DNA of 64,000 nt, from assembly GCA_029569255.1 (NCBI GenBank), contig JAKQUO010000032.1, positions 11,160 through 75,159 of the forward strand, in the 5' to 3' direction. Below the pieces are notes generated by a model. That model ran no database searches. It had not been told where the DNA came from and saw only the letters and a program-made list of their open reading frames with translations. Of this stretch, positions 4,237 to 63,954 are shown one piece after another (the stretch's first letter is position 1; each line of letters opens with the position of its first letter). This DNA is from Acidobacteriota bacterium (GTDB lineage Bacteria > Acidobacteriota > Aminicenantia > Aminicenantales > Saccharicenantaceae). Position numbers and translations under genes: made by a program.

Positions 4237-4637
4237 GCCAGGGCGCGGCCGACCTTGGCCAGCAGCTCGTCGAGGTCGACGGGCTTGGTCAGGAACTCGT
4301 TCCGCCCGGGGAGGAAGCTGTCGGACGGGTCCATGGAGAAGCGGGAGTTCGTGACCTGGTCGATGGCCGTCAGGATGACGATGGGCACGTCGCGGAAGGC
4401 CTTGTACTTCGAGGTCTCGCGGCGGCTGCGGACGGCCGCGGCGGCCTCGAACCCGGCCGTGTCCGTCTCCATCATGACGTCCAGGACGACGAGGTCGGGC
4501 CGCTCGGCCAGCAGGGCCTTGAGGCCGTCGGCCCCGCTGTGGGCGGCGGCGACCTCGTAGCCGTGGGCCTTGAGGACCTGGGCCAGGCTGGCCGTGAGGT
4601 CCCGGTCGTCGTCGACGATGAGGATCTTCTTGCTCAT
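4233..4637 (-). CDS. single-domain response regulator (CheY-like REC)
   Basis: MSKKILIVDDD...VVLDVMME...TKPV. Internal ATG at 4637 chosen: it forms an ATGA overlap with the stop of the upstream hydrogenase small-subunit gene, and its own stop overlaps the kinase start (ATGA at 4233-4236). Confidence 0.85.
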   Translation of the reverse strand: MSKKILIVDDDRDLTASLAQVLKAHGYEVAAAHSGADGLKALLAERPDLVVLDVMMETDTAGFEAAAAVRSRRETSKYKAFRDVPIVILTAIDQVTNSRFSMDPSDSFLPGRNEFLTKPVDLDELLAKVGRALA

Positions 4638-5164
4638 GAGTTCAGGACCTCGTAGATGACGTTGCGCTCCTCCCAGGCCTTGTTCCGTTCGTACATGTCG
4701 ATGGGGAACTCGACCTGCTTGAGCTCGACCGGGGCGGCCTTCTTGTCGACCAGGCCGAGGGCCAGGGCGACGCCGTAGACGATGGCCTCCGGACGCGGCG
4801 GGCAGCCGGGGATGTAGTAATTGACGGGCACGGCCGCGGCCCCGCCCCCGGTGACGTTGTAGGTGTCGAACCAGCAGCCGCCGCCCGTGGCGCAGGAGCC
4901 GATGCCGAAGACGAGCTTGGGCGCGGGCATGGCCGCCCAGGCCTTCTTGACGAGCGGCAGGGTCGGCCGGGTCACGGCCCCCGACAGGAGCATGACGTCG
5001 GCGTGCCGCGGCGAGCCGACGAGCCTGATGCCGAACCGCTCGACGTCGTAGTAGGGGGTCAGGATGTTGAGGATCTCGATGTCGCAGCCGTTGCAGGCCC
5101 CGCTGTTGCAGTGATAGACCCAGAGCGAGCGGGGGAAGCACTTCTTGGCCAGCTTGGCGAGCAT
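4634..5164 (-). CDS. hycG: group 4 [NiFe]-hydrogenase small subunit (HycG/NuoB-like)
   Basis: 176 aa; CNGCDIE...GSCATGGGCW...IPGCPPRPEA NuoB-type FeS motifs. Confidence 0.85.
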   Translation of the reverse strand: MLAKLAKKCFPRSLWVYHCNSGACNGCDIEILNILTPYYDVERFGIRLVGSPRHADVMLLSGAVTRPTLPLVKKAWAAMPAPKLVFGIGSCATGGGCWFDTYNVTGGGAAAVPVNYYIPGCPPRPEAIVYGVALALGLVDKKAAPVELKQVEFPIDMYERNKAWEERNVIYEVLNS

Positions 5165-5165
5165 G

Positions 5166-5711
5166 TCACTCTCCCGTCGAAGCCGGGCGCTCGTAGCGCT
5201 CGGTCTTCCCGAGCTCGGCCGGACGGAAGGTGTCCGTGGCCCGGCGGAGGACCGTCCGGGCCTCCAGGCTGTCGTAGCGGTAGCCGGTCAGTCCGAGCTT
5301 GTCGATGGCGTTCCTCGTCTCCATGTCGTAGCAGCGGCCGCAGCGCTGGCAGGTCAGCATGAACAGCTCCAGCGTCTCGGTGACGTCGTTCGGGTCGTCC
5401 GTGGCCTGCTCGAAGCGGCCGGTCATGGTGATGGCCTTCTCCGGGCAGACGTCGGCGCAGCGGCCGCAGTAGGTGCAGCGGGAGCCGTCGTAGAGGAGGA
5501 CCCGGATCTCCTGGCAGAGGTCGCGGACCATGATCGTCCGGGCCGGGCAGTGCTCGGCGCAGCCGGCGCAGCCGACGCACTTGGTGTGGTCCCAGTGCGG
5601 GGCGCCCCGGAAGTTCTCCGGGACCGGCCGCGGCTCGAAGGGGTACTTGAGGGTCACGACCCCCGGTTTGGCGGCCATCAGGAGCTGCTTGATCTTGCTT
5701 GTCAGCCACAT
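5166..5711 (-). CDS. hycF: 2x[4Fe-4S] ferredoxin-type subunit (HycF/NuoI-like)
   Basis: CVGCAGCAEHCP and CTYCGRCADVCP motifs; position between NuoH-like and NuoB-like genes. Confidence 0.8.
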   Translation of the reverse strand: MWLTSKIKQLLMAAKPGVVTLKYPFEPRPVPENFRGAPHWDHTKCVGCAGCAEHCPARTIMVRDLCQEIRVLLYDGSRCTYCGRCADVCPEKAITMTGRFEQATDDPNDVTETLELFMLTCQRCGRCYDMETRNAIDKLGLTGYRYDSLEARTVLRRATDTFRPAELGKTERYERPASTGE

Positions 5712-5730: not shown

Positions 5731-6633
5731 TCACAGCCCCGCCACGGCCAGCCCGACCGCGGTCAGGGCGACGACGATGAGCCCGGCGTAGACCTTGACG
5801 GCCTGGTCGATCCTGAGCCGCGGGTTGGTCGAGCCGACCAGGGCGACGAGGGCGAAGACGGCCAGCGTCCCCAGCAGCTGGGTCAGGATGTCGCCGGCGT
5901 AGGTGCCCGTCCGCAGGAAGGGCAGGAAGACGGCGGCGAACAGCCAGGCGTAGACCATGCGCTTCATCATCACGTAGTAGCGGAACAGGGCGTAGTCCGG
6001 GCCGCTGTACTCGATGAACGCCCCCTCGAGGACCTCGATCTCGGCCTCGGGGATGTCGAACGGCTGCTTGGCCGCGAAGGCCTGCAGGGCGACGGCGTAG
6101 GCGGCCAGCATGACCGCGGTCGAGAGGCCGTATCCGGCCGCCGAGCCGCCGAAGACGGCCGCGCCGAGCCCCAGGCTGCGGCCGCGCGCGGCGCCGACGA
6201 GGAGGGTCATGGCCAGGACGGGCTCGACCATGACCATGGTCACCGTCTCCCGCGAGGCCCCGATGGCCGCGAAGGTGTTGCGGCTGGCCAAGGCGCCGAG
6301 GAGGACCGCGACGCCGCCGAGCGTCAGCAGGTAGACGATGGTGACGGCGTCGACCCGGGCGCCCAGGGCGTTGACCTTGGAGCCCAGGGGGACGAGGGCG
6401 GCCACGGCCAGGATCGAGGCGAAGGCGGCCGGCGGGGCCAGCCGGAAGGCCCAGTTCCGGGCCGAGTCGACGCGGTCCTTGCCGAGGAGCTTGAGCAGGT
6501 CGAAGTAGGGCTGGACGAGCGGCGGGCCCTGGCGCGACTGGACCCGGGCCGTGATCCTCCGCATGACGCCCTCGAAGAGCGGCGCGAGCAGGAGGAAGAG
6601 GAGGACGTTGACGAAGACGGCGGCGACGCTCAT
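5731..6633 (-). CDS. hycD: hydrogenase membrane subunit (HycD/NuoH-like)
   Basis: Internal ATG at 6633 (MSVAAVFVNVLLF...RITARVQSRQGPP). Polytopic membrane protein; the upstream part of the long ORF overlaps the large-subunit gene in another frame. Confidence 0.8.
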   Translation of the reverse strand: MSVAAVFVNVLLFLLLAPLFEGVMRRITARVQSRQGPPLVQPYFDLLKLLGKDRVDSARNWAFRLAPPAAFASILAVAALVPLGSKVNALGARVDAVTIVYLLTLGGVAVLLGALASRNTFAAIGASRETVTMVMVEPVLAMTLLVGAARGRSLGLGAAVFGGSAAGYGLSTAVMLAAYAVALQAFAAKQPFDIPEAEIEVLEGAFIEYSGPDYALFRYYVMMKRMVYAWLFAAVFLPFLRTGTYAGDILTQLLGTLAVFALVALVGSTNPRLRIDQAVKVYAGLIVVALTAVGLAVAGL

Positions 6634-6635
6634 GG

Positions 6636-8315
6636 TCACTCCTTCCCGCCCGCGCCCCGCGACATCCGCTCGAGCTCGGCCCGGCCGACGACGCGCCGGG
6701 CGCCCGAGCGGGCGTCGACGACGGCCACCCGGTCCGTGCAGGAGAAGCAGGGGTCGATCTGGCCGAGGATGATGGGGAAATCGGCGAACTGGTTGTCGAG
6801 GAGCATGGCCGGCACGGCCTGGAGGTTCGGGTAGGTCGGGGCCCGGACGCGCCAGCGCTCGGGCCGGTTCTCCTCGCCGGTGATGACGTAGTGGACCGAC
6901 TCGCCGCGCGGGGCCTCGACCATGGATATCGCGTGCCGCAGGGGCGGCGGGGCCTCGGGCATGTCGGCCATGAGCGGGCCCTCGGGCATCCGGGCCAGGG
7001 CCTGCCGGAGGATGGCGATGGCCTCGAAGACCTCCAGGACCCGGACGACGAGCGTCCCCCAGACGTCGCCGCTGTCGACGACAGGGACGTCGAAGGCCAT
7101 GTCGTCGTAGGCGGCGTAGGGGTGGTCCTTGCGGACGTCCAGCTTCAGGCCGCGGGCCCGGGCCACCGGGCCGACCAGGCTCCAGCGGGCCGTCTCTTCT
7201 TTCGAGAGATAGCCGACGCCCTTGGTCCGGCGGTGGATGGCCCCGTCGCCGACAACGGCCTTCTTGAGGGTCAGGACGTCTTTCTCCAGGCCCGCCAGCA
7301 TGCCCTCGATCTCGGCCCGGACCTCCGGCCCGATGTCGCGCCGGACGCCGCCGATGACGATCATGCCGTAGGTCTTGCGGTTCCCGGTGATGCGCTCCGC
7401 CAGCCACATGACCTTCTCGCGGACGCGCCAGGCGTGCATGAAGACCGTGTCGAAGCCGATGAGGTGGCCGGCGATGCCGAGCCAGAGGAGGTGCGAGTGG
7501 AGGCGCTCGATCTCGAGCATGACCGTCCGGATGTACTCGGCCCGCCGCGGCACGCGGATGCCGGCCGCGGCCTCGACGCCCTGGGCGTAGCAGCAGGCGT
7601 GGACCGAGCCGCAGATGCCGCAGATGCGCTCGGCGACGAAGGGCACCTCGTTGTAGCTGACCTGGGTCTGGCAGAGCTTCTCGATCCCCCGGTGGGTCAT
7701 GAAGCCGCGGTAGTCGCAGCCCTTGATGGTCTCGCCGTCGACGTAGACGGCGAAGTGCTCGGGCTCGTGGAGGCTGGCGTGGAACGGGCCGATGGGGACG
7801 ACCGTCGTCCCGGGCGGGGCCTCGTCGAGCCGGTAGGCGACGTCCTCGGCGGCCGGCGGCTCGAGGTCGTGCGGGACCTCCTTGCGCAGGGGATAGACGC
7901 CCTCCGGCCAGTCGTCGGCCACGACGAGGCGCTTGGGCTTGGGGTGGCCGGCGAAGCGCATCCCCAGGAGGTCCTGGTACTCGCGCTCGGACCAGCCGGC
8001 GCCCGGGAAGTCCGGGGTGATGGAGTCGAAGACCGGGTCGGCGGCGGGAGCCGAGGTCCTCAGGGCCACGGCGGCGTGGTCGGCGTCGAAGGCGAAGGCG
8101 TGGATCATCCCCAGAACGCCCTTGCGGGCGATCTCGTCGGTGCCGATGCCGACCATGTAGCGGCCGCCGAGCCCGGCCAGGGCGTTGGCGGCGGCCCTCA
8201 GGGCCGAGCGGTCGACGTCGACGAAGAGCCGGTCCGGGCGCGGCGATTCCGTTCTCTCGAGGCCGGCGCCGAGGCGGCCCCTGAGGTCTTTTTCTATCCT
8301 GTCCAGGACGTTCAT
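6636..8315 (-). CDS. hycE: group 4 [NiFe]-hydrogenase large subunit, NuoC-NuoD fusion (HycE-like)
   Basis: 559 aa; N-terminal NuoC-like domain; Ni-ligand pairs RICGICG and DPCFSCTDR, followed by a 31-aa C-terminal tail typical of protease-processed large subunits. Confidence 0.9.
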   Translation of the reverse strand: MNVLDRIEKDLRGRLGAGLERTESPRPDRLFVDVDRSALRAAANALAGLGGRYMVGIGTDEIARKGVLGMIHAFAFDADHAAVALRTSAPAADPVFDSITPDFPGAGWSEREYQDLLGMRFAGHPKPKRLVVADDWPEGVYPLRKEVPHDLEPPAAEDVAYRLDEAPPGTTVVPIGPFHASLHEPEHFAVYVDGETIKGCDYRGFMTHRGIEKLCQTQVSYNEVPFVAERICGICGSVHACCYAQGVEAAAGIRVPRRAEYIRTVMLEIERLHSHLLWLGIAGHLIGFDTVFMHAWRVREKVMWLAERITGNRKTYGMIVIGGVRRDIGPEVRAEIEGMLAGLEKDVLTLKKAVVGDGAIHRRTKGVGYLSKEETARWSLVGPVARARGLKLDVRKDHPYAAYDDMAFDVPVVDSGDVWGTLVVRVLEVFEAIAILRQALARMPEGPLMADMPEAPPPLRHAISMVEAPRGESVHYVITGEENRPERWRVRAPTYPNLQAVPAMLLDNQFADFPIILGQIDPCFSCTDRVAVVDARSGARRVVGRAELERMSRGAGGKE

Positions 8316-8325
8316 GTCGGTCTCC

Positions 8326-10188
8326 CTACTTGCCGCTCTTGCCCCCCGCGAACTTGAACAGGCCCCGCAGGGCCGCGAACATGCCCCGGTCGGCGTACCG
8401 GTTGGCCTCGTTGAGCTCCTGGTAGCCGCAGAGCCAGGTCGGGGCCTCGACCCGCTTGGCCCCGCCCGCCCGGCGCAGCAGGGCCCCCAAGGCCAGGGCC
8501 GAGCCGACGAGGAGCAGGACCACGAGGGGCGCCGCGGCCGCGCCGAAGGCCGGCAGGCCGACGCCGAGCGCCGAGGCCGCGAACGGCCCGGACGGGGCCG
8601 TCATCGCGCCGGCCAGGAGGAAGCCCTCCGACCGCCCCAGCGCGGCCAGGGCCAGGCCGACGGACAGGGCCGGGAAGAGGCCCTGCGCGAGGGCCACCGC
8701 CGCCAGGGCGATCTTGGGGGCCAGCATCGAGCCCGGGACCTCGCGGATGGGCCCGGGGGCGTGGCGCTCGGCGCCGGACGAGGTGAAGGCCATGCCGAAG
8801 AACTTGACGTAACAGGCCAGCGTCACGACGCTCGTGAACAGGGCCACGACGCCGAAGAGGACCAGGGCGACGGTCGCCTTGTGGGCGGCGAACGAGCCGC
8901 CGGCCAGGACGTTGCTGGCCACGATCGTCCACTTGCTCGAGAAGCCGCTGAAGGGCGGCATGCCCGAGATCGACAGCGAGGCGACGCCGGCGACGGCCGC
9001 GCTCACCGGCATCAGGCGGATGAGCCCGCCCAGCCTGTTGAGGTCCTTGGTGCCGGTGGCGTAGAGGATGCTGCCGCTCGTGAGGAACAGCAGGCCCTTG
9101 AAGACGGCGTGGTTGAGGAAGTGGAAGAGGGCGCCGACGGCGGCGGCCACGGCCAGGAGCCGCAGGGCCGGCGCGCCCGTCGTCCCCAGGTAAAGGGCGG
9201 CGCCCGTGGCCAGGACGATGTAGCCGACCTGGCCGATGGAGCTGTAGGCCAGCAGGCGCTTGGCGTCGCTCTGCTTCATCGATTGGACCGTCCCGACGAG
9301 AAGCGTGACCGCGCCGACCGCGGCGACGACGAGCCCCCAGGCCCGGCCGTCGAACGCGCCCTCTCCCGCCGGGGGCATGAACAGGAAGGTCCGCAGCAGC
9401 CCGTAGACGCCGGTCTTGATCATGACGCCGCTCAGCAGGGCGCTCACGGGCGACGGGGCGATGGAGTGGGCGTCGGGCAGCCAGAGCTGCCCGAGCGGCC
9501 AGACGCCGGCCTTCAGGCCGAAGCCGACGAGCAGCAGGCCGAAGAAGGCGGCCGACGGCAGCGCCCCGGTGGCGCGGAGTCCGGAGGCGATCTCCGCCAG
9601 GGGCTGGCCGAAGCGGTAGCCGTCGACGAGGAAGGCCGCGGCGACGACGAGGACCCAGGCGGCCTCCATGAGGACCAGGTACTTCGCGGCGCTGCGGCGG
9701 TTCTCCGCCTTCCGGCGCTCGAAGCGGACCAGGAAGAACGAGGCCACGGTCATGACCTGCCAGGCCAGGCTGAAGCCGAGGGCCAGGTCGTCGACCGTGA
9801 CCAGGGCGGCCATGCCCAGGACGAACAGCGGGTAGCACAGGTAATAGCCGCCCAGCCCGTACTCCGGGTAATGGTCCATGTAGCGGATGGAGTACAAGGC
9901 GCTGGCCACGGCCATGAGGGCGATGACGGCCAGGAAGACCGCCGAGACGCCGTCGACCAGGAAGGGGACGGCGACGGGGCCGAGGGCGACGGTCCGGAGG
10001 GCGGGCCCGGCGGGGCCGAAGAGGGCCTCGGCGCTCACGCTGAGCAGGAGGGCCGCCGCGCCGGAGACCAGGGCCAGGGCGACGGCCCCGGCCGCGCGCC
10101 GCTTCCGGGCGACGAGCGGCGCCGCCGCGGCCGCGGCGGCGAGCAGTCCGAAGGCGGCGAACAAGCGGGCGAAGAGGTCAGCGTTCAT
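8326..10188 (-). CDS. hycC: antiporter-like membrane subunit (HycC/HyfB/NuoL-like)
   Basis: 620 aa, ~15 TM helices; WLPDAHSIAPSPVSALLSG motif of NuoL/Mrp-type subunits. Confidence 0.85.
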   Translation of the reverse strand: MNADLFARLFAAFGLLAAAAAAAPLVARKRRAAGAVALALVSGAAALLLSVSAEALFGPAGPALRTVALGPVAVPFLVDGVSAVFLAVIALMAVASALYSIRYMDHYPEYGLGGYYLCYPLFVLGMAALVTVDDLALGFSLAWQVMTVASFFLVRFERRKAENRRSAAKYLVLMEAAWVLVVAAAFLVDGYRFGQPLAEIASGLRATGALPSAAFFGLLLVGFGLKAGVWPLGQLWLPDAHSIAPSPVSALLSGVMIKTGVYGLLRTFLFMPPAGEGAFDGRAWGLVVAAVGAVTLLVGTVQSMKQSDAKRLLAYSSIGQVGYIVLATGAALYLGTTGAPALRLLAVAAAVGALFHFLNHAVFKGLLFLTSGSILYATGTKDLNRLGGLIRLMPVSAAVAGVASLSISGMPPFSGFSSKWTIVASNVLAGGSFAAHKATVALVLFGVVALFTSVVTLACYVKFFGMAFTSSGAERHAPGPIREVPGSMLAPKIALAAVALAQGLFPALSVGLALAALGRSEGFLLAGAMTAPSGPFAASALGVGLPAFGAAAAPLVVLLLVGSALALGALLRRAGGAKRVEAPTWLCGYQELNEANRYADRGMFAALRGLFKFAGGKSGK

Positions 10189-10672
10189 GGCGGTTCTCCG
10201 GTCGGTCGGCGGCGCGGGCGCCGAGGACGGCGTCGCGGACGGCGGCGGCGGCCCGCTCGACCGCGGGGGTCAGGCCCTCGCCGAAATCCAGGTCGGCGGG
10301 CACGATGCCGAGCAGGAAGGCCTTCTTGCCCGCGGCCTCGAGGTACTTGCCGCAGAGAGAGAGGGCCATCTTGTGGGTCGAGAAGCTCCCGGCCTCGCCC
10401 ATCTCGTCGAGGGGGCCGAAGACGACGGTCCCGGGCCCGCCCGGGGCGGCCACGGCGTCGACGAAGACGACGCTCGAAGCGGCGCCGCGGGCCAGGGCGG
10501 GGACGACGTTCTCCGGCACGTCCTGGGCGTCGACGAGCTCGAGCCCGGGGACGGCCGGGGCGGCCCGCAGGGCGGCGACGATCCAGGGGCCGACGCCGTC
10601 GTCGCGGCGCAGGGGGTTGCCCACGCCGACGAGGCAGGCGCCTTGGCGGAGGACGTCGCTGAGCCCGTTCAT
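10178..10672 (-). CDS. hycI: hydrogenase maturation endopeptidase (HycI/HyaD family)
   Basis: 164 aa; VGVGNPLRRDDGVGPWIV N-terminal motif; overlaps the next gene by 11 nt. Confidence 0.75.
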   Translation of the reverse strand: MNGLSDVLRQGACLVGVGNPLRRDDGVGPWIVAALRAAPAVPGLELVDAQDVPENVVPALARGAASSVVFVDAVAAPGGPGTVVFGPLDEMGEAGSFSTHKMALSLCGKYLEAAGKKAFLLGIVPADLDFGEGLTPAVERAAAAVRDAVLGARAADRPENRHER

Positions 10673-10679
10673 GGCCGGC

Positions 10680-11522
10680 CTAGATATGCTCCCCGAGGGT
10701 CTTGATCTGCTTGTAGGTGTAGACCGGCCCGTCCGTGCAGACGAGGGTCCGGCCGATGGCGCAGTGCTGGCACTTGCCGATGCCGCACTTCATGTGCCGC
10801 TCCAGGGTCGAGACGATGTCCTCGTCCCGGAGCCCGGCGGCCAGGAGCTCCTTGATGACCGAGTTGAACATCAGCGGCGGGCCGCAGACGAAGGCCACGG
10901 TGTTCTCGACGGGGACCCGGGCCGGGGCGACCCGGGTGTGGACGAAGCCGACGGGGCCCGTCCAGCCCGGCTCGGGCCGGTCGATCGTGAAGTGGGTCTC
11001 GAAGCCCTCGGTGGCCTTCCACTTGTCGATCATGTCCCGGTACATCAGCTCCTTGGCCGAGCGGGAGCCGTAGATGAGGACGATGCGGCCGAAGTCCCGG
11101 CGGTGCTGGAGGACGTGGACGATGGACGAGCGCAGGGGGATGAGCCCGATGCCGCCGGCGACGTAGACGACGTTCTTGCCCTTGATGGACTCGAAGGGGA
11201 AGCCGTTGCCGAAGGGGCCGCGGAGGCCGATCTTGTCGCCGGGCCCGAGCTCATGGAGGGCCCGGGTGACCTTGCCGACCTGGCGGACCGACAGGTGAGG
11301 CCGGTCGTCCTCCGGGCTGAAGGGCAGGGACACGGCGAACTCGCCGGCGCCGAAGACCGTGCACATGACGAACTGGCCCGACTTGATGCGGAAGGCCCGG
11401 GCGGCCTCGGGCCGCTCGAACGAGAAGTAGAACGTGCGGACGTCCTCGATCTCGTCCCGGACCTCGTCGATGACGGCGACCTCCGGGACGGTGACGACGG
11501 CGCCGGGGTTCGGAGCGCTCAT
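10680..11522 (-). CDS. FAD/NAD(P)-binding oxidoreductase with C-terminal [2Fe-2S] (sulfhydrogenase gamma HydG / AsrB / PyrK-like)
   Basis: Internal ATG at 11522 (ATGA overlap with the upstream gene); ferredoxin-reductase fold motifs (VVYVAGGIGLIP) and MKCGIGKCQHCAIG cluster motif. Confidence 0.8.
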   Translation of the reverse strand: MSAPNPGAVVTVPEVAVIDEVRDEIEDVRTFYFSFERPEAARAFRIKSGQFVMCTVFGAGEFAVSLPFSPEDDRPHLSVRQVGKVTRALHELGPGDKIGLRGPFGNGFPFESIKGKNVVYVAGGIGLIPLRSSIVHVLQHRRDFGRIVLIYGSRSAKELMYRDMIDKWKATEGFETHFTIDRPEPGWTGPVGFVHTRVAPARVPVENTVAFVCGPPLMFNSVIKELLAAGLRDEDIVSTLERHMKCGIGKCQHCAIGRTLVCTDGPVYTYKQIKTLGEHI

Positions 11523-12586
11523 TTCGCACCTGCCTTGGTGATCTCGCGCCGGATGTAGGTGACGACGTTGGCGATGCCGATGTCGCCCGGGCAGACCCGG
11601 TTGCAGCGGCCGCAGCCGACGCAGCCGGGCCGGAGGTACTTCTTGGACTGGGAGTAGGACAGCTTGCAGAAGAAGCGCTTGTTGCGGCGGTCCTCGACGG
11701 GCTTGCGGGGGTTGTGGTCGCCGGCCATGCGGGTGTAGCCCTCGAAGGAGCAGGAGTCCCAGGACCTCGTCCGGTCGGCCCGGCCGCCGCCCGCGGGGAG
11801 GTCCTCGACGTTGAAGCAGGAGCAGGTCGGGCAGACGAAGGAGCAGGCCCCGCACTCGAAGCACTGGTCGCCGATGTACTCCCAGACGTCGTTCGAGATG
11901 AAGCCCATGGTGATGCGGTTCATGACCCGCGAGATCCAGGCCTTGTTCTCGGTGGCCTCGGCGTCGAAGCGGGCGATCGAGGCGTCGACGATCCTGGCCT
12001 TGAGGGCGGCGGCGTCCGGCCCGGCGTCCTCGAGCCCGAGCCGGCGGGCCAGGGCCTCGCCCTTGTCGCTGCCGGCCTCGTAGAGATAATGGCCGCCGGC
12101 CGACGTCAGGGCGGCGTCGAAGCCCTCCCGGGCGGCCGGCCCGCTGTCGGTGCAGACGCAGAAGCACTGGGGGAACGGCCGGACGCAGGTGTTGGCCAGG
12201 ATGAACATGCGCTTGCGGTGGTCGCGGTAGACCTCGTCGACGTACTCCTGGCCGAGGAAGAAGCGGTCCAGGCAGAGGAGCCCCGCCAGGTCGCAGGCCC
12301 GGAGGCCGACCAGGGCCTTGGGCCTGACGAGGTCCTCGCGGACGACGGCGGCCTCGCGGCTCTCCCGGTCGTAGCGGTAGGACATGATCCTCTCGGCCTG
12401 GGGGAAGACGGCGAACTTCGGCGGGTTGTAGGTGATGGGGGCGTCCAGCCGGAGGACGGCCGGGTCGTCGACCCGCTCGAACATCGGGTCGCCGCCGTCG
12501 GCCCGGACGACGGGGCCGTAGAGCTCGTAGTCGGCGGCGAGGGCGGCGAGGAGCGCCGGGACCTTGTCTCTGGGCAGAATGCGCAT
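11519..12586 (-). CDS. 4Fe-4S dicluster protein (sulfhydrogenase beta HydB / AsrA-like)
   Basis: Internal ATG at 12586 (MRILPRDKV...); CFECGACSFVCPTCSCF and CVGCGRCNRVCPGDI motifs. Confidence 0.75.
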   Translation of the reverse strand: MRILPRDKVPALLAALAADYELYGPVVRADGGDPMFERVDDPAVLRLDAPITYNPPKFAVFPQAERIMSYRYDRESREAAVVREDLVRPKALVGLRACDLAGLLCLDRFFLGQEYVDEVYRDHRKRMFILANTCVRPFPQCFCVCTDSGPAAREGFDAALTSAGGHYLYEAGSDKGEALARRLGLEDAGPDAAALKARIVDASIARFDAEATENKAWISRVMNRITMGFISNDVWEYIGDQCFECGACSFVCPTCSCFNVEDLPAGGGRADRTRSWDSCSFEGYTRMAGDHNPRKPVEDRRNKRFFCKLSYSQSKKYLRPGCVGCGRCNRVCPGDIGIANVVTYIRREITKAGAK

Positions 12587-12588
12587 GG

Positions 12589-14547
12589 TCACACCTTTTC
12601 GATCCGCACCGGGACGGCCGAATCCTGGTCCTCGTCGACGGCGGCCCCGGCGGCGTTGAGGAAGCCGGGGACCATGTCCTCGATGAAGTAGGGGACGTAG
12701 ACGGCCCCGGGCTGGATGTCCCCGGAGACGCGCACGTCCACGCGCATCGACCCGCCGGCGGCGACGACGTCGACCGGGGCCTTGTCCCGGAGCCCGAGGG
12801 CCTTGGCGTCGGCCGCGGCGACCTCGACGAAGCCGCGGGGATAGAGGAGTAGCAGGGCGTTGTACTCCCGCTTCGGGATCTGGGTCTTCTTCATGATGTT
12901 GTTGCGGTGCCAGAAGTAGTTGGCCTTGCCGGCCATGAGCAGGTAGGGGAACTCCGGCGTCGGCGCGGGGGCCGAGAGGGCGGGCGGGACGGCGACGAAG
13001 CGGAGCCGGCGCGGCGCGGCCGCCGCGTCGAGCCGGACCGTGCCCCCGGGGCGCGCGGCGTCCACGGGCCACTGCAGGCCGTGGGCCTTCCCGAGCCCGG
13101 CGTAGGTGACGCCGGCGTAGGCGGGCACGGCGGCGGCGATCCCGGCCATGATCCCCTCGGCCGATTCGACCGCCCAGTCGGCGCCGAGCTTCGCCGCCAG
13201 GTCGGCGTAGATGCGCCAGGCCGGGCGGACGCCGGAGGGCGGCTCGACCTTCTTGCGGTTGAGCTGGATGCGCCGCTCGGCGTTGGTATAGGTCCCGTCG
13301 GTCTCCGCGTAGGTGGCGGCGGGCAGGACGACGTGGGCGAGCCCGGCGAAGGGATTGGCGAAGGCGCCTATATAGAGGAGGAACTCGAGGCCCTTGATCC
13401 GGGCCGCGTGGCGGACGATCTCCTCGTCCCGGTCGGCCACGACCAGGGCCTTGAGCGGCGACGCGGGGTCGGCCAGCAGCTCGCGCGGCGTGCGGCCGGC
13501 GGCCGCGCCTTCGGTCCGGCGGTGGCCGGGGAGGAAGCGGTTCGTGGCGCCGACGTCGAAGCTGCCGACGATGTTGGCGATGCCGGGGACGGGGTTGACG
13601 CCGCAGCCTTCCCGGCCCGTCTTGCCCGCGGCCAGGAAGAGGCCGTGGAGGAAGGCGACCGTGTCGCGGTCGAGGCCGGCGATGCCGGTGGTGAAGAAGG
13701 CCATGGCCGTCGGCGACTGGGCCAGGCCGCGGGCCAGCTCCTCGATGTCGGGGACGGCCAGGCCCGAGGCCGCCGCCAGGGCGTTCAGGTCGAGCCCGGC
13801 CAGGGCGCGGGCGAAGCCGTCGAAGCCCTCGGTCCGGTCCCGGACGAAGGCCTCGTCGGCCCAGCCCTTCTCGACCAGGACCTTGGCCGCGGCGGCCAGG
13901 GCGTGCCGCAGCGCGCCGGGCCGCGTCCAGAGGTGGGCGCCGCTCAGGCGGGTCATCTGCGTCGCCCGCGGGCTCAGGGTGACCAGGCGCGCGCCGCCGC
14001 GGGCGGCCATGTGGATCTCGCTGCCGACGATGGGATTGAGCTTGGCGATGTCGGCCCCGACGACCAGGATGAACCGGGCCTGGCGGACCTCGGTGAGAGA
14101 GCCGGACATGGCCGGCCAGCCCGTGCCCTCGAGGAGGACCTCGGCGGCGTCGCCGTGGCCCTGGTCGGAGGCCAAGCCGATGTGGGGCGTGCGGCAGACC
14201 TCCCGGGCCAGCTTGGCCAGGAGGAAGTTGTCCTCGTTGGAGGCCCGGGGCGAGGCCAGGAAGGCGATCTCGTCGCCGGAGTAGCGGCCCAGCCTCCCGG
14301 CGGCGTGGGCCAGGGCCTCGTCGTAGGCGACGGGCTCGAGCCTTCCGCCGCGCCGGACGGCCGGCGAGACGATCCGGTCCCGCGCCGCCAGGAGCTCGTG
14401 GATGTGCCAGCCGCGGACGCACAGCCGTCCCCGGCTGACGGGATGACCGGGCGAGGCGAAGACGCCGCGGACGGCGGCGTCGCCGACGTCGAGGATATGG
14501 CCGCAGCCGGTGCCGCAGAAGTTGCAGACTCCCGAGTGAGTGCTCAT
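12589..14547 (-). CDS. molybdopterin-oxidoreductase family protein, FdhH-like (formate dehydrogenase alpha-like) but with non-canonical active-site positions
   Basis: 652 aa; N-terminal CNFCGTGCG...LCVRG [4Fe-4S] motif; collinear with E. coli FdhH from memory, see findings. Confidence 0.85.
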   Translation of the reverse strand: MSTHSGVCNFCGTGCGHILDVGDAAVRGVFASPGHPVSRGRLCVRGWHIHELLAARDRIVSPAVRRGGRLEPVAYDEALAHAAGRLGRYSGDEIAFLASPRASNEDNFLLAKLAREVCRTPHIGLASDQGHGDAAEVLLEGTGWPAMSGSLTEVRQARFILVVGADIAKLNPIVGSEIHMAARGGARLVTLSPRATQMTRLSGAHLWTRPGALRHALAAAAKVLVEKGWADEAFVRDRTEGFDGFARALAGLDLNALAAASGLAVPDIEELARGLAQSPTAMAFFTTGIAGLDRDTVAFLHGLFLAAGKTGREGCGVNPVPGIANIVGSFDVGATNRFLPGHRRTEGAAAGRTPRELLADPASPLKALVVADRDEEIVRHAARIKGLEFLLYIGAFANPFAGLAHVVLPAATYAETDGTYTNAERRIQLNRKKVEPPSGVRPAWRIYADLAAKLGADWAVESAEGIMAGIAAAVPAYAGVTYAGLGKAHGLQWPVDAARPGGTVRLDAAAAPRRLRFVAVPPALSAPAPTPEFPYLLMAGKANYFWHRNNIMKKTQIPKREYNALLLLYPRGFVEVAAADAKALGLRDKAPVDVVAAGGSMRVDVRVSGDIQPGAVYVPYFIEDMVPGFLNAAGAAVDEDQDSAVPVRIEKV

Positions 14548-14725
14548 GCCGTTGGCTCCTGAGACTTGGTGGCCCGGATCTTCCCGGCCGGCGGGCCTCG
14601 ACCGGACAGATGCGCGGCCGGCGGGATACAGCCCTCTCCCGGCGGTGATCAGGGGCTTCGACGGAGAGCTTAGCTCGTCAGCCGCGCAGGGAATTCTATA
14701 GAAAACAGGATACCAAAATCCCGGC

Positions 14726-15247
14726 CTAAAGTAAAGGCTCGCGCAACTTCAGGCCGAGGACGTATAAGATATTGTAGAAATTGGAGATGCCGCCGACGAA
14801 ACGCTCCTTGATCAGGCCCTTGGGGATGTCGTCGATGACGGCCTTCAGGCCGTCGAGCGCGGCCTTGAGGGCCGCCTGGTCGGCCAGGAGGACGGCCCGG
14901 CCGTGGGCCTCGAGCAGGGCCGCGACGACGGGGCCGGCCCGCGAGACGTCGTCGAGCACGGCCCGGTAGGCGTCGCGCCGCGGGGCGGGGACGGCCAGGA
15001 CGGCCTTCTCGGCCAGGGCGGCCCGGGTCACGGCGTACCCGATGAGGACCTCGGCCGTGTTGCGCTCCCGGAGCCGGTCGGGATAGCGCTCGAAGTAGGC
15101 CTCGCCGAGGGCGATCATGTCGGCGCTGCCGAGCGCGAAATCGCCGTCCAGGGCCCGGACGGCCGCGCGGAAGGACTCCGGGTCGGGCCGGCGGCGGAAG
15201 AGCTCGGCCAGGGTGGCGGTCATGGGCCTGTCGGAGGCGTCCGGCAA
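14726..15247 (-). CDS. hypothetical all-alpha protein
   Basis: 173-aa ORF with typical codon bias, 28 nt downstream of the response regulator gene; no motif recognised. Confidence 0.45.
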   Translation of the reverse strand: MPDASDRPMTATLAELFRRRPDPESFRAAVRALDGDFALGSADMIALGEAYFERYPDRLRERNTAEVLIGYAVTRAALAEKAVLAVPAPRRDAYRAVLDDVSRAGPVVAALLEAHGRAVLLADQAALKAALDGLKAVIDDIPKGLIKERFVGGISNFYNILYVLGLKLREPLL

Positions 15248-15275
15248 GACGGCGGCGGGAGGCTCGGCCCGGCCG

Positions 15276-15650
15276 CTAGGCCTTGGCGTAACGGCCGATG
15301 ACGGCCAGCAGCAGGTCGAAGTTGACGGGCTTCTGGAAGACGCCGCTGAAGCCGTACTCGGCCAGGCCGACGTTGGCGGCCGTGGCGTCGCCGATCGTGC
15401 TCAGGAGGAAGACGGGCGTCCCGGGGCGCTCGGTCTTCATGATCTTGGTCACCTGGCCGCCCGAATCGATGTCCTCCATCATCATGTCGCAGAGGACGAT
15501 GTCGGGGTTCGTCTTGCGGAAGGCCTCGAGGCCTTCCTTGCCGCTCAGGGCGAAGGACGCGTCGAAGCCGTTGGCGTCGAGGATGGCCTTGACCGACTCG
15601 CAGATGGCCGGGTCGTCGTCGATGATGAGCACCTTCTTCTTGTCGCTCAT
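15276..15650 (-). CDS. single-domain response regulator (CheY-like REC)
   Basis: Internal ATG at 15650 preceded by GGAGGACACC; MSDKKKVLIIDDD...VLCDMMME...QKPV. Confidence 0.8.
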   Translation of the reverse strand: MSDKKKVLIIDDDPAICESVKAILDANGFDASFALSGKEGLEAFRKTNPDIVLCDMMMEDIDSGGQVTKIMKTERPGTPVFLLSTIGDATAANVGLAEYGFSGVFQKPVNFDLLLAVIGRYAKA

Positions 15651-15992: not shown

Positions 15993-18356
15993 TCAGAGCT
16001 CCTGGTGCTCGGTCCGGCGGATGATTTCGTTCTGGAGCTCCGTCGAGCAGTCGACGAAGTAGTCGCTGTAGCCGGCCACCCGGACGATGAGGTCCCGGTG
16101 CTTCTCCGGCTCCGCCTGGGCCGTCCGCAGCAGGTCGGCCGTGACGACGTTGAACTGGAGGTGGTGGCCCATGAGCCGGAAGTAGGACCGGACGAGGTCC
16201 TTGAGTCCCCTCAGCCCCGTCTCGTCGGCCAGGAGCTGGGGCGTGAACTTCTGGTTGAGGAGCGTCCCGCCCGTCCGGACGTGGTCCATCTTGCCGAGCG
16301 ACTTGATGACCGCCGTCGGGCCCTTGCGGTCGGCGCCCTGGACCGGCGAGACGCCCTCGGAAACGGCGTCGCCCGCCAGCCGCCCGTCGGCCGTGGCCCC
16401 GGTCATCTTGCCGAAGTAGATGTGGGACGTCGTCGGCAGGAGATTGATCCGGTAGGCGCCGCCGCGCGGCGTCGGCCGGCCGTCCACGGCCTCGAAATAG
16501 GCCTCGAAGACGCGCTTCATCAGCGAGTCGGCGTAGTCGTCGTCGTTGCCGAACTTGGGCGTCCGGTTGAGGAGGCGCCGGCGGAGGGCCTCGTGGCCCT
16601 CGAAGTCGTCCTCGAGCGCGGCCAGGAGCTCGGCCATCGTGAAGTGCTTGTGGTCGTAGACGTTCCAGCGGACGGCGCTGAGGGCGTCGGTGATGGTGCC
16701 CATGCCGACGCCCTGGATGTAGTTGGTGTTATAGCGGGCCCCGCCGGCGTGGTAGTCCTTGCCGGCCTTGACGCAGTCGTCTATGAGGACCGACAGGAAC
16801 GGCGCCGGCAGGTACCTGGCGTAGAGGGCCTCGATGACGTTCGAGCCGCGGACCTTGATGTCGACGAAGTGGCGGACCTGCCGGCGGAAGGCCTCGAACA
16901 GCTCGTCGAAGGTCCCGAACGCCGTCGGGTCGCCGGTCTCGAGGCCGATCCTCTTCCCCGTGCGCGGGTCGACGCCGTTTCCCAGGGTGATCTCGAAGAC
17001 CTTGGGCAGGTTGAAGTAGCCGGTCAGGATGTAGGCCTCCTTCCCGAAGGCCCCGGTCTCGACGCAGCCGCTGGCCCCGCCGTTGCGGGCGTCGGCGACC
17101 GACTTGCCCTGGCGGACGAGCTCCTGGACGATGGCCTCGGTGTTGAAGATCGAGGGCTGGCCGAAGCCCGTCTTGACGATCTCGAGGGCGCGGAGGAGGA
17201 ACGCGTCCGGCCCCTTGGCGCTGATCTGGACCATCGAGCTCGGCTGGAGGATGCGCATCTCCTCGATGACGTCGAGGATGAGGTAGCTCAGCTCGTTGAC
17301 GCCGTCGGAGCCGTCCTCTTTGAGGCCGCCGACGTTGATCAGGGCGAAGTCGGTGTAGGTGCCGCTCTCCTCGGCCGTGACGCCGACCTTGGGCGGGGCG
17401 GGCTGGTTGTTGAACTTGATCCAGAAGGCCTGGAGGAGCTCCCGAGCCGACTCCTCGGTCAGCGAGCCGTCGGCCAGCCCCTTCCGGTAGAACGGCCAGA
17501 GGTGCTGGTCCAGGCGGCCGGGGTTGAACGAGTCCCAGGTGTTGTACTCGGTGATGACGCCGAGGTGGACGAACCAGTACATCTGGAGGGCTTCCCAGAA
17601 GTCGCGCGGGGCCTCGGCCGGGACCCGGTCGCAGACCTCGGCGACGCGCTCGAGCTCCTTACGGCGCGCGGGGTCCTTCTCGCCCGCGGCCAGCTCCCGG
17701 GCCTTGTCCGCGTGCCGCCGGCCGAAGGCGATGACGGCGTCGCAGGCGGCGGCCATGGCCTTGAGCTCCTCCTGCTTGTCGTAGGCCCCGGGGTCGGCCA
17801 TGAAGTCGAGGGCGGAGAGGGCCGCGGCGATGTCCTTCTTGAAGTCCTCGAGGCCCTTGGCGTAGATCTTGCCGTCGAGGACGGTGTGGCCGGGGGCGCG
17901 CTGCTCCATGAACTCGGTGAAGACGCCGGCCTCGTAGGCGTCGATCCACTCCCGGGTCATCTCGGCGAAGATGAGGTCCCGCTGCGAGCGGCCCTGCCAG
18001 AAGGGGATGATCTCCTCGGCATAGACGCGCCGGGTCGCCTCGTCGGAGGCGAAGGAGGTCTTCTTGCGGTCGTTGAGCCGCCGGAGGTCCTGGAGGGAGT
18101 GGCAGCAGACCTCGGGGTAGGTCGGCGTCGCCTTGGGGGCGGGGCCGCGCTCGCCGACGATGAGCTCCCCGTCGTTGATGCAGACCGCCTTGTTCTCCAT
18201 GACGTGCTTGAAGGCCAGGGCGCGCTGCATCGGGACCGAAAGCGCGCGCGTTCCCGGGCGCCTGTAGAACTCGGTCAGGAGCCGGGCCCGCTCGGCGCTG
18301 ATCGTCGGCTTGGCCTCGAGCGTCTGCCGTCTCAGCTTCCGGATCCGTTCGTTCAT
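15993..18356 (-). CDS. glycyl radical enzyme (PFL2/glycerol-dehydratase-like eliminase clade), substrate unknown
   Basis: C-terminal glycyl radical motif IVRVAGYSDYF; Cys loop GGASGCVETG; ~787 aa. Start at 18356 (GGAGG 6 nt upstream) preferred over 18362. Confidence 0.9.
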   Translation of the reverse strand: MNERIRKLRRQTLEAKPTISAERARLLTEFYRRPGTRALSVPMQRALAFKHVMENKAVCINDGELIVGERGPAPKATPTYPEVCCHSLQDLRRLNDRKKTSFASDEATRRVYAEEIIPFWQGRSQRDLIFAEMTREWIDAYEAGVFTEFMEQRAPGHTVLDGKIYAKGLEDFKKDIAAALSALDFMADPGAYDKQEELKAMAAACDAVIAFGRRHADKARELAAGEKDPARRKELERVAEVCDRVPAEAPRDFWEALQMYWFVHLGVITEYNTWDSFNPGRLDQHLWPFYRKGLADGSLTEESARELLQAFWIKFNNQPAPPKVGVTAEESGTYTDFALINVGGLKEDGSDGVNELSYLILDVIEEMRILQPSSMVQISAKGPDAFLLRALEIVKTGFGQPSIFNTEAIVQELVRQGKSVADARNGGASGCVETGAFGKEAYILTGYFNLPKVFEITLGNGVDPRTGKRIGLETGDPTAFGTFDELFEAFRRQVRHFVDIKVRGSNVIEALYARYLPAPFLSVLIDDCVKAGKDYHAGGARYNTNYIQGVGMGTITDALSAVRWNVYDHKHFTMAELLAALEDDFEGHEALRRRLLNRTPKFGNDDDYADSLMKRVFEAYFEAVDGRPTPRGGAYRINLLPTTSHIYFGKMTGATADGRLAGDAVSEGVSPVQGADRKGPTAVIKSLGKMDHVRTGGTLLNQKFTPQLLADETGLRGLKDLVRSYFRLMGHHLQFNVVTADLLRTAQAEPEKHRDLIVRVAGYSDYFVDCSTELQNEIIRRTEHQEL

Positions 18357-18358
18357 GG

Positions 18359-63375: not shown

Positions 63376-63954
63376 ATGAAGCAGGACATCATCCTCGCGG
63401 GCGTCGGGGGGCAGGGCATCCTGTCGATCGCCTACGTCATCGACAACGCCGCGCTCGCCGACGGCCTGGTCTTCAAGCAGGCCGAGGTCCACGGCATGGC
63501 CCAGCGCGGCGGGGCCGTCCAGTCCCACATGCGGCTCTCGGACGGCTCCATCTGGAGCGACCTCATCCCCAAGGGCGAGGCCGACATGGTCCTCAGCGTC
63601 GAGCCGCTCGAGGCCCTGCGCTACCTGGACTACCTCCGGCCCGACGGCGTCGTCGTCACCGGCCTGACGCCCTACCGCAACATCCCCGACTATCCGGAGA
63701 TCGACCGGGTCCTCGAGGCCGTGCGCCGGGCGCCGCGGGCGGTCGTCATCGACTCGGAGCGCCTGGCCAAGGAGGCCGGCACGGTCAAGGCCCAGAACGT
63801 CGTCCTCCTCGGCGCCGCCTCGCCGTTCCTCATCCTCAAGGAGGACAGCCTGCTCGCGACGGTCGGCGCCCTGTTCCGGCCCCGCGGCCCGGCCGTCCTG
63901 GAGGCCAACCTCAAGGCCTTCGCGCTGGGCCGGAGCGCTGCCCTGGGCTTATGA
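63376..63954 (+). CDS. iorB: indolepyruvate oxidoreductase beta subunit
   Basis: ILAGVGGQGILS...AEVHGMAQRGGAV motif; 3 nt after iorA. Confidence 0.85.
   Translation: MKQDIILAGVGGQGILSIAYVIDNAALADGLVFKQAEVHGMAQRGGAVQSHMRLSDGSIWSDLIPKGEADMVLSVEPLEALRYLDYLRPDGVVVTGLTPYRNIPDYPEIDRVLEAVRRAPRAVVIDSERLAKEAGTVKAQNVVLLGAASPFLILKEDSLLATVGALFRPRGPAVLEANLKAFALGRSAALGL

Follow-up and report, generated by a model that had tools for sequence, protein, structure and literature searches.

The fdhX locus

We analysed a stretch of 64,000 nucleotides (hereafter the window) from the genome of an Acidobacteriota bacterium of the Saccharicenantaceae (assembly GCA_029569255.1, contig JAKQUO010000032.1, forward-strand positions 11,160 to 75,159; coordinates below count from the first letter of the window). 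The gene in question lies at 12589-14547 on the minus strand and encodes a protein resembling FdhH (FdhF), the formate dehydrogenase (Fdh) of the Escherichia coli formate hydrogenlyase (FHL); the name FdhX was coined for it in this analysis. A compact nine-gene operon on the minus strand begins with fdhX; its neighbouring genes overlap by 4-11 nt or are separated by gaps of at most 19 nt, and it also encodes two sulfhydrogenase-like subunits and the subunits of a membrane [NiFe] hydrogenase. The catalytic selenocysteine or cysteine (Sec/Cys) and the catalytic arginine of formate dehydrogenases are missing from FdhX and from its whole family, and we propose that the protein is probably a non-catalytic iron-sulfur (Fe-S) subunit of a hydrogenase that would be linked to NAD(P)H rather than to formate.

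The features of the gene itself are the following. Residue counts here and below, unless stated otherwise, refer to 81 sequences, namely the best 80 loci from a scan of species-representative genomes, which gave 214 relatives of FdhX, together with the window.

12589..14547, minus strand: FdhX, FdhH-like MopB protein of 652 aa (Pfam Molybdop_Fe4S4, Molybdopterin, Molydop_binding)
14419..14526, minus strand: codons of the [4Fe-4S] ligands Cys8, Cys11, Cys15 and Cys43 (Cys invariant in 81/81 sequences)
14413-14415, minus strand: codon of Arg45, directly after the Cys codons, which replaces Lys44 of FdhH (Arg in 81/81)
14155..14160, minus strand: codons of Gly130 and His131, which align with FdhH Sec140/His141 (phmmer and MAFFT alignments)
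13585..13587, minus strand: codon of Pro321, at the position of FdhH Arg333 (phmmer and MAFFT alignments)

Loss of the catalytic residues in FdhX

An earlier interpretation of the window, made from the letters and their translations (the sequence-only reading), had aligned FdhX to FdhH by hand and without gaps, and had claimed that Sec140 is replaced by Gly with His141-Gly142 kept, that Arg333 is replaced by Pro, and that the N-terminal [4Fe-4S] motif is intact in a frame without TGA. The four cysteines can be read directly in the open reading frame (ORF), which runs unbroken from ATG to stop over 652 codons with no in-frame TGA, and the register is reproduced by two independent alignments. 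With phmmer, FdhX matches the F420-dependent formate dehydrogenase of PDB entry 9t1s_L from end to end (2e-84), with ASDQGHG opposite CARLXHS and GVNPVPGIANIVG opposite GVNPLRGQNNVQG. With MAFFT, E. coli FdhF from NC_000913 was added to an alignment of 69 FdhX homologues; the two proteins are free of gaps from N114 to S158, and the FdhF/FdhX pairs are U140/G130, H141/H131, G142/G132, R333/P321, K44/R45 and Q335/I323. Residues 125-134 of FdhX read LASDQGHGDA and residues 317-328 read VNPVPGIANIVG. Gly at the ligand position, Pro at the arginine position and Arg45 opposite Lys44 are common to both alignments, as is the retained His. The best NCBIfam model for FdhX is that of the Fdh alpha subunit (TIGR01591), at 367.4 bits under a cut-off of 666.25; the NuoG model TIGR01973 gives 111 bits (cut-off 470).

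The loss of ligand and arginine is a trait of the family and no private mutation. At E <= 1e-20 a protein database search with FdhX gave 326 proteins. The 120 best matches share 46-100% identity with it, are nearly all ~650-670 aa long and come from metagenome-assembled genomes (MAGs) of Acidobacteriota/Aminicenantes, Spirochaetota and Chrysiogenales; the relatives found among species-representative genomes belong mainly to Aminicenantes/Ca. Saccharicenans and Spirochaetota. In the 69 aligned homologues (46-100% identity) the ligand column holds 64 Gly, four Trp and one Arg, and the Arg333 column 51 Thr, 12 Ala, four Pro and two Val, while the four Cys and Arg45 are invariant. Across the 81 sequences the ligand column holds Gly (77) or Trp (4), the Arg333 column Thr (56), Ala (18), Val (3), Pro (2) or Ser (2), and the His141 column His (57), Gln (14), Leu (6) or Tyr (4). 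Cys, Sec, Ser or Asp in the ligand column, or Arg in the 333 column, which the sequence-only reading had named as signs of a shifted alignment, occur in 0/81. As to its question whether orthologues share the two substitutions, Gly is present in 77/81; at the second position it is the disappearance of Arg that is shared (81/81), Pro itself being confined to 2/81. The equivalent of Lys44 is Lys in 14/14 canonical Fdh sequences and Arg in 81/81 FdhX sequences. Internal stops in fdhX were found in none of the 80 species-level loci, and there is therefore no hidden Sec.

fdhX is maintained by purifying selection. In sequences of 46-100% identity, 65 columns are invariant, and a segment of domain IV, F-W-H-x-N-x-x-M-K-K-T-x-I-P-[KR]-R-E-Y-N, is very strongly conserved in the family. 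Against four close relatives the ratio of nonsynonymous to synonymous substitution rates (dN/dS) of fdhX is 0.35-0.42, inside the 0.10-0.54 spanned by the eight remaining genes of the operon and similar to that of the hyfB-, hycD- and hycI-like genes; all these values are inflated, because the bias in third-position G+C (GC3) restricts synonymous change. FdhX is the least conserved soluble subunit, with 74-87% amino acid identity vs 81-93% for HycE in the same pairs. With Sec/Cys and Arg missing throughout a family under purifying selection, the earlier inference that FdhX is probably not a canonical formate dehydrogenase is supported.

Composition and conservation of the operon

The eight genes that follow fdhX are listed in operon order.

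11519..12586, minus strand: beta-like Fe-S subunit (AsrA/HydB/ShyB-like), 355 aa, with a 4-nt overlap between its start and the stop of fdhX; Pfam Fer4_22; 9nez_B, 4.9e-38
10680..11522, minus strand: gamma-like flavoprotein (AsrB/HydG/ShyC-like), 280 aa; FAD_binding_6, NAD_binding_1, DHODB_Fe-S_bind; 9nez_C, 6.5e-55
10178..10672, minus strand: HycI-type hydrogenase maturation protease; Pfam HycI; TIGR00072, 102.6 bits over a cut-off of 47.45
8326..10188, minus strand: HyfB/HycC/NuoL-like antiporter-type membrane subunit, 620 aa; Proton_antipo_M/N; hydrogenase 4 subunit B, 2.6e-109
6636..8315, minus strand: HycE-like [NiFe] large subunit, 559 aa, fused at its N-terminus to a NuoC-like part; 7z0s_E, 4e-123
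5731..6633, minus strand: HycD/NuoH-like membrane subunit, 300 aa; Pfam NADHdh, 2.9e-51
5166..5711, minus strand: HycF/NuoI-like 2x[4Fe-4S] subunit, 181 aa; FHL iron-sulfur NCBIfam model at 2.9e-31, below cut-off; Pfam Fer4
4634..5164, minus strand: HycG/NuoB-like small subunit, 176 aa; Oxidored_q6; NF005012, 126 bits over a cut-off of 116

The large subunit contains RICGICG and DPCFSCTDR, which align with the Ni-Fe motifs of HycE with both Cys pairs present. It is of the type found in FHL-like, group 4 membrane [NiFe] hydrogenases; as to the subgroup (4a, 4f or unclassified), the pointer is its best PDB match, HycE.

The two genes directly after fdhX encode the sulfhydrogenase-like subunits. 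The best PDB match of the beta-like protein is the beta subunit of Pyrococcus furiosus sulfhydrogenase I, with the Cys motifs aligned, and the NCBIfam models ShyB, HydB and AsrA recognise it at E 1e-38 to 1e-41 (142, 140 and 131 bits, all under the cut-offs, which are 690, 750 and 323). The gamma-like protein likewise finds the gamma subunit of sulfhydrogenase I as its best PDB match; its NCBIfam equivalog scores of 192, 189 and 177 bits all lie below the cut-offs of 650, 600 and 289. It comprises flavin adenine dinucleotide (FAD) and NAD(P)H domains and a C-terminal [2Fe-2S] motif, with C-x4-C-x2-C...C conserved, and a G-S-R-S-A-K stretch after the second strand of the NAD domain presumably resembles, if weakly, that of NADPH-specific FNR-type enzymes.

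A gene for HycB is absent from the operon, which has no room for one; the only ferredoxin-like genes among the nine are the HycF-like and the beta-like gene. The HycF-like protein bears a C-Q-R-C-G-R-C sequence in a C-terminal extension. E. coli HycF is described as having a metal site of four Cys near the FdhF interface (PMC9474812), and the second of its Cys pairs is missing from the HycF-like protein. With HycB missing and an NAD(P)H module of the sulfhydrogenase beta/gamma type in its place in the operon, the sequence-only reading was right to reject a plain label of formate hydrogenlyase.

Among the 63 loci where the sequence continues for 9.8 kb or more downstream, 62 have the same gene order, as do contigs that were inspected individually, and the same operon type accompanies proteins with only 34-40% identity to FdhX (P0125, P0129, P0161). 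The operon is thus real, conserved and widespread, and is a variant within the FHL/complex I superfamily.

Fold of FdhX and fate of its cofactor site

The AlphaFold2 model of FdhX, computed on the family alignment, has a mean pLDDT (predicted local distance difference test) of 88.4 and a predicted template modelling (TM) score, pTM, of 0.91. In a Foldseek search against the PDB the query TM scores are 0.85-0.89 to Fdh alpha subunits, FdhH (1fdi, 1aa6, 7z0t_A), FdsA and NapA, and only 0.66-0.67 to NuoG. On this model FdhX is a complete four-domain Fdh-type MopB protein and not a shortened one.

The question is then whether the fold still holds molybdenum bis(pyranopterin guanine dinucleotide) (Mo-bisPGD). 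Conserved polar positions were compared with those of E. coli FdhH, NapA, FdnG, YdeP, DmsA, F420-Fdh and 13 Cys-containing Fdh alpha subunits. One near-invariant position is changed in the FdhX family in the same way as in NuoG (N176D; G-E-D-V vs G-x-D-I). Others changed in the family are H181N, Q335I, G402D, D429G, T433N and D478A/G, as well as T579A, R581K, R644D/E, N662G and K679S/A, and at three more positions (V427Y, T435F, H655F) bulky hydrophobic residues have come in, which the family in turn conserves. Going by MopB structures, the changed positions would be those that contact the two guanine dinucleotides. On the other side, by our mapping R58 and E415 of FdhX correspond to the salt-bridge pair R108/E794 of NarG, and both are kept; this Arg-Glu salt bridge is described as conserved (PMC5123574). 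Judged from the substitutions, Mo-bisPGD has likely been lost from FdhX.

Global counts of conserved columns were also considered as a cofactor test. Counted over 108 conserved columns of canonical Fdh alpha subunits, the FdhX core family keeps 56 and NuoG 40. The broader count used 74 pan-MopB columns from FdhH, NapA, FdnG, YdeP, DmsA and F420-FdhA, scored by leave-one-out, and was dropped because FdhX, at 58-62%, falls inside the 44-76% spanned by genuine molybdoenzymes (NuoG, 46%); the specific positions were kept.

Origin of the family

A HMMER search of representatives clustered at 50% identity returned 663 proteins below 1e-30. Adjoining the FdhX core family are FdhH-sized proteins of ~30-36% identity that also have neither Cys nor Arg and stand amid Cys/Sec enzymes. 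In a neighbour-joining tree of 37 sequences with 100 bootstraps, a distance tree and as such only indicative, the core family is monophyletic in 100/100 replicates and the core together with the distant ligand-less proteins in 93/100. Since the ligand-less proteins group together, the tree points to one ancient loss of the ligand inside a clade of cytoplasmic formate dehydrogenases, independent of that in NuoG.

Catalytically intact relatives retain the same partners. Downstream of the gene for P0148, a canonical FdhA, comes a beta-like gene, and gamma-like and MobA-like genes lie nearby; intact FdhA-beta-gamma trios occur at six further loci (L105, L107-L109, L115 and L118; Nitrospirota/Thermodesulfovibrio). 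Their FdhA proteins carry NIDHCARLCH, GINPLRGQNN and CVKG, that is Cys, His, Arg and Lys44, and no hydrogenase genes were found within 10 kb of these trios. Such a trio is presumably a formate:NAD(P)+ oxidoreductase of uncharacterised architecture, in which electrons would pass from Mo to the FdhA cluster, the beta clusters, and the gamma [2Fe-2S] centre and FAD, and on to NAD(P)+. A motif after the fourth cluster Cys, C-x-[KR]-G-W-x-x-H-E, is common to FdhX, its ligand-less relatives and beta/gamma-linked FdhA only, and may represent a retained contact with the beta subunit. FdhX-beta-gamma thus probably descends from a formate:NAD(P)+ oxidoreductase trio of this kind.

The FdhA of L118 has one in-frame stop, which may encode Sec, and at L097 an intact FdhA-beta-gamma cluster also holds a MobA-like gene and a transposase. 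The distant ligand-less protein P0164 reads A-I-N-G-W where others have C-x-[KR]-G-W and may have lost the fourth cluster Cys. At L098 (644-3175) a second beta-like/gamma-like pair adjoins the gene of P0178, another distant ligand-less FdhX-like protein; beside this pair lies a Rex-type regulator (Put_DNA-bind_N and CoA_binding), which would fit the sensing of NADH/NAD+.

Proposed function

We propose that FdhX is a non-catalytic, probably molybdenum cofactor (Moco)-free Fe-S relay or scaffold in an NAD(P)H-linked, energy-converting [NiFe] hydrogenase, and we put the probability of this reading at roughly 0.6. FdhX would be the descendant of a cytoplasmic, beta/gamma-linked Fdh alpha subunit whose Mo/W site was lost and which would no longer oxidise formate. 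Having kept the fold and the [4Fe-4S] cluster, it would serve as a relay or for docking, as the MopB-like C-terminal domain of NuoG does, and together with the poly-ferredoxin beta and the flavoprotein gamma it would replace FdhF and HycB as the electron-input module. Of the two electron donors, NAD(P)H is accordingly more likely than formate to drive the membrane hydrogenase encoded by the operon.

In the proposed path, electrons from NAD(P)H would enter at the FAD and [2Fe-2S] centre of gamma, pass to the [4Fe-4S] clusters of beta and possibly to that of FdhX, and leave through HycF and HycG to the Ni-Fe site of HycE. The FdhX cluster could be the carrier from beta to HycF, or an off-path structural cluster like N7 of NuoG. 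E. coli FdhF contacts both HycB and HycF (PMC9474812), which makes a bridging position of FdhX plausible. Ion movement through the HycD- and HyfB-like subunits would be coupled to a reversible NAD(P)H:H+ oxidoreduction, so that an ion gradient could pull electrons from NAD(P)H to H2, or H2-driven reduction of NAD(P)+ could build a gradient. Taken to its full extent, as a reversible ion-translocating NAD(P)H:H+ oxidoreductase that would represent an uncharacterised hydrogenase type, with a Mo-less, Fdh-derived input module set on an FHL-type module, this picture is tentative. The residue losses and their spread through the family, the purifying selection, the retained fold, the makeup and synteny of the operon and the homology of its subunits are observations. 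The mechanism is a proposal from homology and synteny; that the cofactor is absent, that the subunits assemble physically, that NAD(P)H is the redox partner, that the FdhX cluster stands on or off the electron path, and how the reaction is directed and coupled are inferred.

Several observations weigh against this proposal, some of them concerning the cofactor and others the complex as a whole. FdhX keeps the cofactor-region motifs S-x-R-x-x-N-E, G-x-N-P-V and E-x-D-G-T-x-T-N-x-E-R-R-x-Q; next to the former ligand, His131, Ser127 and Asp/Glu128 have been conserved and could serve a modified site; and the pan-MopB column count given above does not set FdhX apart from working enzymes. A missing protein ligand does not by itself exclude the cofactor, because arsenite oxidase binds Mo-bisPGD without one. 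As to the complex, two loci, L002 (genome GCA_041304185.1; 14362-17043) and L082 (Aminicenantes UBA6228; 14417-15592), keep fdhX-beta-gamma-hycI without hycEDFG in the 10 kb downstream, with an altered or truncated hyfB-like gene; this could be operon decay, a hydrogenase-free module or a misassembly, and it may mean that the fdhX-beta-gamma trio also works without a hydrogenase. That FdhX, beta and gamma would assemble onto the hydrogenase is read from synteny only. Finally, under standard conditions electrons must move uphill from NAD(P)H to H2, which would call for a low H2 partial pressure or an ion gradient.

The observations on the cofactor bear most directly on an alternative in which FdhX still binds Mo- or W-bisPGD with no protein ligand, as in arsenite oxidase, or an unusual one (Ser127 or Asp/Glu128, two or three positions before the former ligand), and catalyses another redox reaction on an unknown substrate, exchanging electrons with NAD(P)H and/or the hydrogenase. 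The retention of the complete four-domain fold speaks for it, as do the conservation of Ser127, Asp/Glu128, Gly130 and His131 in the core family, the cofactor-region motifs, and a column count not lower than in real molybdoenzymes; the strongly conserved segment of domain IV could mark a new site instead of an interface. Yet the wider ligand-less clade, with the same operon type, shares no Ser, Asp or Cys candidate near the ligand position, where P0129 reads DHGMGAYRAT, P0161 DTSARFYQAP and P0180 DTAARLEALP. Positions held in common by Fdh, Nap, Dms and YdeP proteins (N176, H181, D429, T433, R644, N662, K679, Q335) are lost, with Tyr, Phe or Ile coming in at some sites, and Moco genes are absent from the vicinity of the operon, while the intact relative P0148 has a MobA-like gene next to it. 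We regard this alternative as unlikely, though it is the strongest of those considered. The sequence-only reading had allowed for both outcomes, a cofactor-less electron-transfer or scaffold subunit or else a different ligand or substrate, and in that broad form its claim survives.

The energetic objection is taken up by a second alternative, in which FdhX would dock a further partner, such as a ferredoxin, and the complex would confurcate or bifurcate electrons with NAD(P)H and reduced ferredoxin jointly yielding H2, in the manner of Bfu-type hydrogenases, whose NuoG-like subunits have a MopB-like domain without cofactor. As an electron source for H2 evolution NAD(P)H performs poorly by itself, the [4Fe-4S] site of FdhX is invariant, and a cofactor-less MopB-like domain occurs in subunit A of the bifurcating NiFe-HydABCSL (7t2r_A), to which FdhX has a weak match of 1.2e-10. 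Against these stand the absence from the operon of a NuoF-type subunit or other flavin subunit of a known bifurcating kind, the fact that sulfhydrogenase I, whose beta/gamma type is present here, is to our knowledge not known to bifurcate, and the membrane ion-translocating module, which already offers a drive for the uphill step. Such a mechanism appears quite improbable.

Less probable still is a genuine formate hydrogenlyase with a non-canonical way of oxidising formate. The nearest characterised relatives are Fdh alpha subunits for FdhX and E. coli HycE for the large subunit, and a MAG study of hot-spring mats labelled the group 4 enzyme of Aminicenantes a formate hydrogenlyase complex (PMC5459899). 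But Sec/Cys140 and Arg333 are gone in every member of the family, Lys44 and Gln335 are replaced, HycB is missing, the score against the Fdh alpha hidden Markov model is below its cut-off, and genes for pyruvate formate-lyase (PFL), FocA and FdhD were not found near the operon.

That fdhX is a decaying relic carried along without function is the least credible alternative, since against its comparatively low identity and moderately high dN/dS, a ratio similar to those of HyfB, HycD and HycI and inflated like all of them, stand a full-length frame free of stops in 80 genomes, 65 invariant columns, an invariant Fe-S site and a place as first operon gene kept since before relatives of 34% identity split off. 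The pseudogene reading was rejected on the intact frames and on dN/dS.

Comparison with known systems

The operon shares with E. coli FHL-1 (FdhF-HycBCDEFG; 7Z0S/7Z0T) the HycE-, HycG-, HycF-, HycD- and HycC/HyfB-like subunits, the HycI protease and a MopB subunit of FdhF size, which agrees with FdhF in its fold (TM 0.85-0.87) and in its [4Fe-4S] site. It differs in that FdhX has no Sec/Cys, Arg333 or Lys44 and the operon no HycB, while FAD/NAD(P)H subunits of the beta/gamma type are added and the input module comes first in a single operon.

With the C-terminal domain of NuoG/Nqo3 (NDUFS1), FdhX has in common the MopB fold, an FS0/N7-type [4Fe-4S] cluster that is kept and a Mo ligand that is lost, as well as membership in a machine of the complex I superfamily with an NAD(P)H-oxidising flavoprotein module adjacent. 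SPRAS, G-x-D-[VI]-[TA] and C-x-R-G are shared, and the salt-bridge residues appear to be kept in both. In contrast to NuoG, FdhX begins directly with the MopB [4Fe-4S] motif, without an [FeFe]-hydrogenase-like domain at its N-terminus, has no NuoE/NuoF partners, and is closer to Fdh alpha subunits (367 vs 111 bits; TM 0.87 vs 0.67). NuoG has been described as a unique case of Moco loss in the MopB family (Arias-Cartin et al. 2016, PMC5123574).

The closest solved relatives of the two genes after fdhX are the beta/gamma subunits of P. furiosus sulfhydrogenase I (9NEZ), with AsrA/AsrB; there the partner of these subunits is a soluble hydrogenase of group 3b or a sirohaem-containing sulfite reductase, whereas here they accompany a group 4 membrane hydrogenase and FdhX. 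Beta/gamma-linked FdhA (the six loci named above and P0148) is near FdhX in the tree and has the same three-gene module and motif, but retains Cys (perhaps Sec in one locus), His, Arg and Lys44 and has no hydrogenase within 10 kb. A more remote case is arsenite oxidase AioA, a MopB enzyme without an amino-acid metal ligand that carries Mo-bisPGD, a [3Fe-4S] cluster and a Rieske partner. It is a weak structural match (TM 0.72-0.76), and FdhX, unlike AioA, has lost many conserved polar residues of the cofactor segments.

The published description nearest to this operon is that of an 'enigmatic group 4 hydrogenase' in Saganbacteria RX5A, whose function was left open in Supplementary Note 5 of Matheus Carnevali et al. 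2019 (PMC6349859). As described there, it likewise combines a group 4 [NiFe] hydrogenase, a phylogenetically unclassifiable FdhH-like protein and asrA-/asrB-like genes; unlike the operon in the window it has an extra cooF-like gene, the comparison being one of descriptions and not of sequences. That part of the paper notes missing nitrate-binding residues and contains no report of the loss of the Mo ligand and Arg, of the breadth of the family or of NAD(P)H-linked H2 metabolism. HydDB describes group 4f as 'formate-coupled (putative), undetermined role'. In the literature searched, which covered few subscription journals, no report was found of the ligand and Arg loss, the breadth of the family, the intact sister form or the NAD(P)H-linked reading, and no functional data on group 4f, Ehf or Saccharicenans.

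Surroundings of the operon in the window

The window has ~70% G+C, and long spurious ORFs of up to 1117 aa occur everywhere on both strands; real frames are marked by a third-position G+C of ~0.97. Thus only the last 355 codons of the ORF 11519-14422 (minus strand, 967 aa), those of the beta-like gene, are real, and the ORF 12907-14562 on the plus strand is a by-product as well. The other genes discussed here are:

1196-2290, minus strand: hybrid receiver/kinase
2314-4236, minus strand: sensor histidine kinase, 640 aa; a Cache-domain kinase follows the operon in L004, L005 and L012
4233-4637, minus strand: receiver-only response regulator after hycG; a regulator stands after hycG in most loci
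14726-15247, minus strand: 173-aa protein upstream of fdhX, with no match in Pfam or NCBIfam
15276-15650, minus strand: receiver-only response regulator upstream of fdhX
15993-18362 and 18359-19291, minus strand: trans-4-hydroxy-L-proline dehydratase and adjacent radical-SAM activase; NF043068, 1294 bits over a cut-off of 1100
20576-21766, minus strand: galactose mutarotase
45409-46815, minus strand: DcuC-type C4-dicarboxylate carrier
47861-50503, minus strand: GH116 glycosidase
63376-63954, plus strand: pyruvate:ferredoxin oxidoreductase gamma domain, at the window edge

The kinase and regulator genes that follow hycG suggest that a dedicated two-component system, sensing a ligand, controls the operon. 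Upstream, tblastn places the 173-aa protein on the same strand and within 16 kb of fdhX in 53/80 loci, and a receiver-domain match lies near fdhX (same strand, 16 kb) in 65/80, a count in which the query also matches the downstream regulator. The PFL-like neighbour at 15993-18362 was considered as a local source of formate and rejected, as NF043068 identifies it as trans-4-hydroxy-L-proline dehydratase; L002 carries the same dehydratase/activase pair upstream of its operon. Among the called and scanned genes of the 64-kb window, none is formate-producing, formate-transporting or Moco-related. The pyruvate:ferredoxin oxidoreductase gamma domain, the DcuC-type carrier, the GH116 glycosidase and the galactose mutarotase fit a fermentative, saccharolytic anaerobe.

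Implications

The operon is present in at least 214 genomes at species level. Homologues of fdhX are named formate dehydrogenase in databases by pipeline annotation, and the distant versions of the operon come from metagenomic contigs. If FdhX cannot oxidise formate, then inferences of formate-driven H2 production drawn for anoxic sediments, digesters and aquifers would be wrong.

No group 4 hydrogenase characterised so far is known to us to accept electrons from NAD(P)H. If the proposal is true, the FdhX family would join NuoG as the second and independent instance of a MopB protein turned into a cofactor-less Fe-S subunit within the complex I superfamily, and it offers a testable parallel to NuoG for which a catalytically intact sister form is extant. 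The operon would also be a living analogue of a hydrogenlyase-like ancestor gaining a nicotinamide-linked input module; whether an FHL-type complex preceded complex I is discussed in the FHL structure paper (PMC9474812). An NAD(P)H-fed membrane hydrogenase could allow fermenters to oxidise NAD(P)H with release of H2, paid for by the ion gradient, or alternatively H2-dependent reduction of NAD(P)+ could conserve energy.

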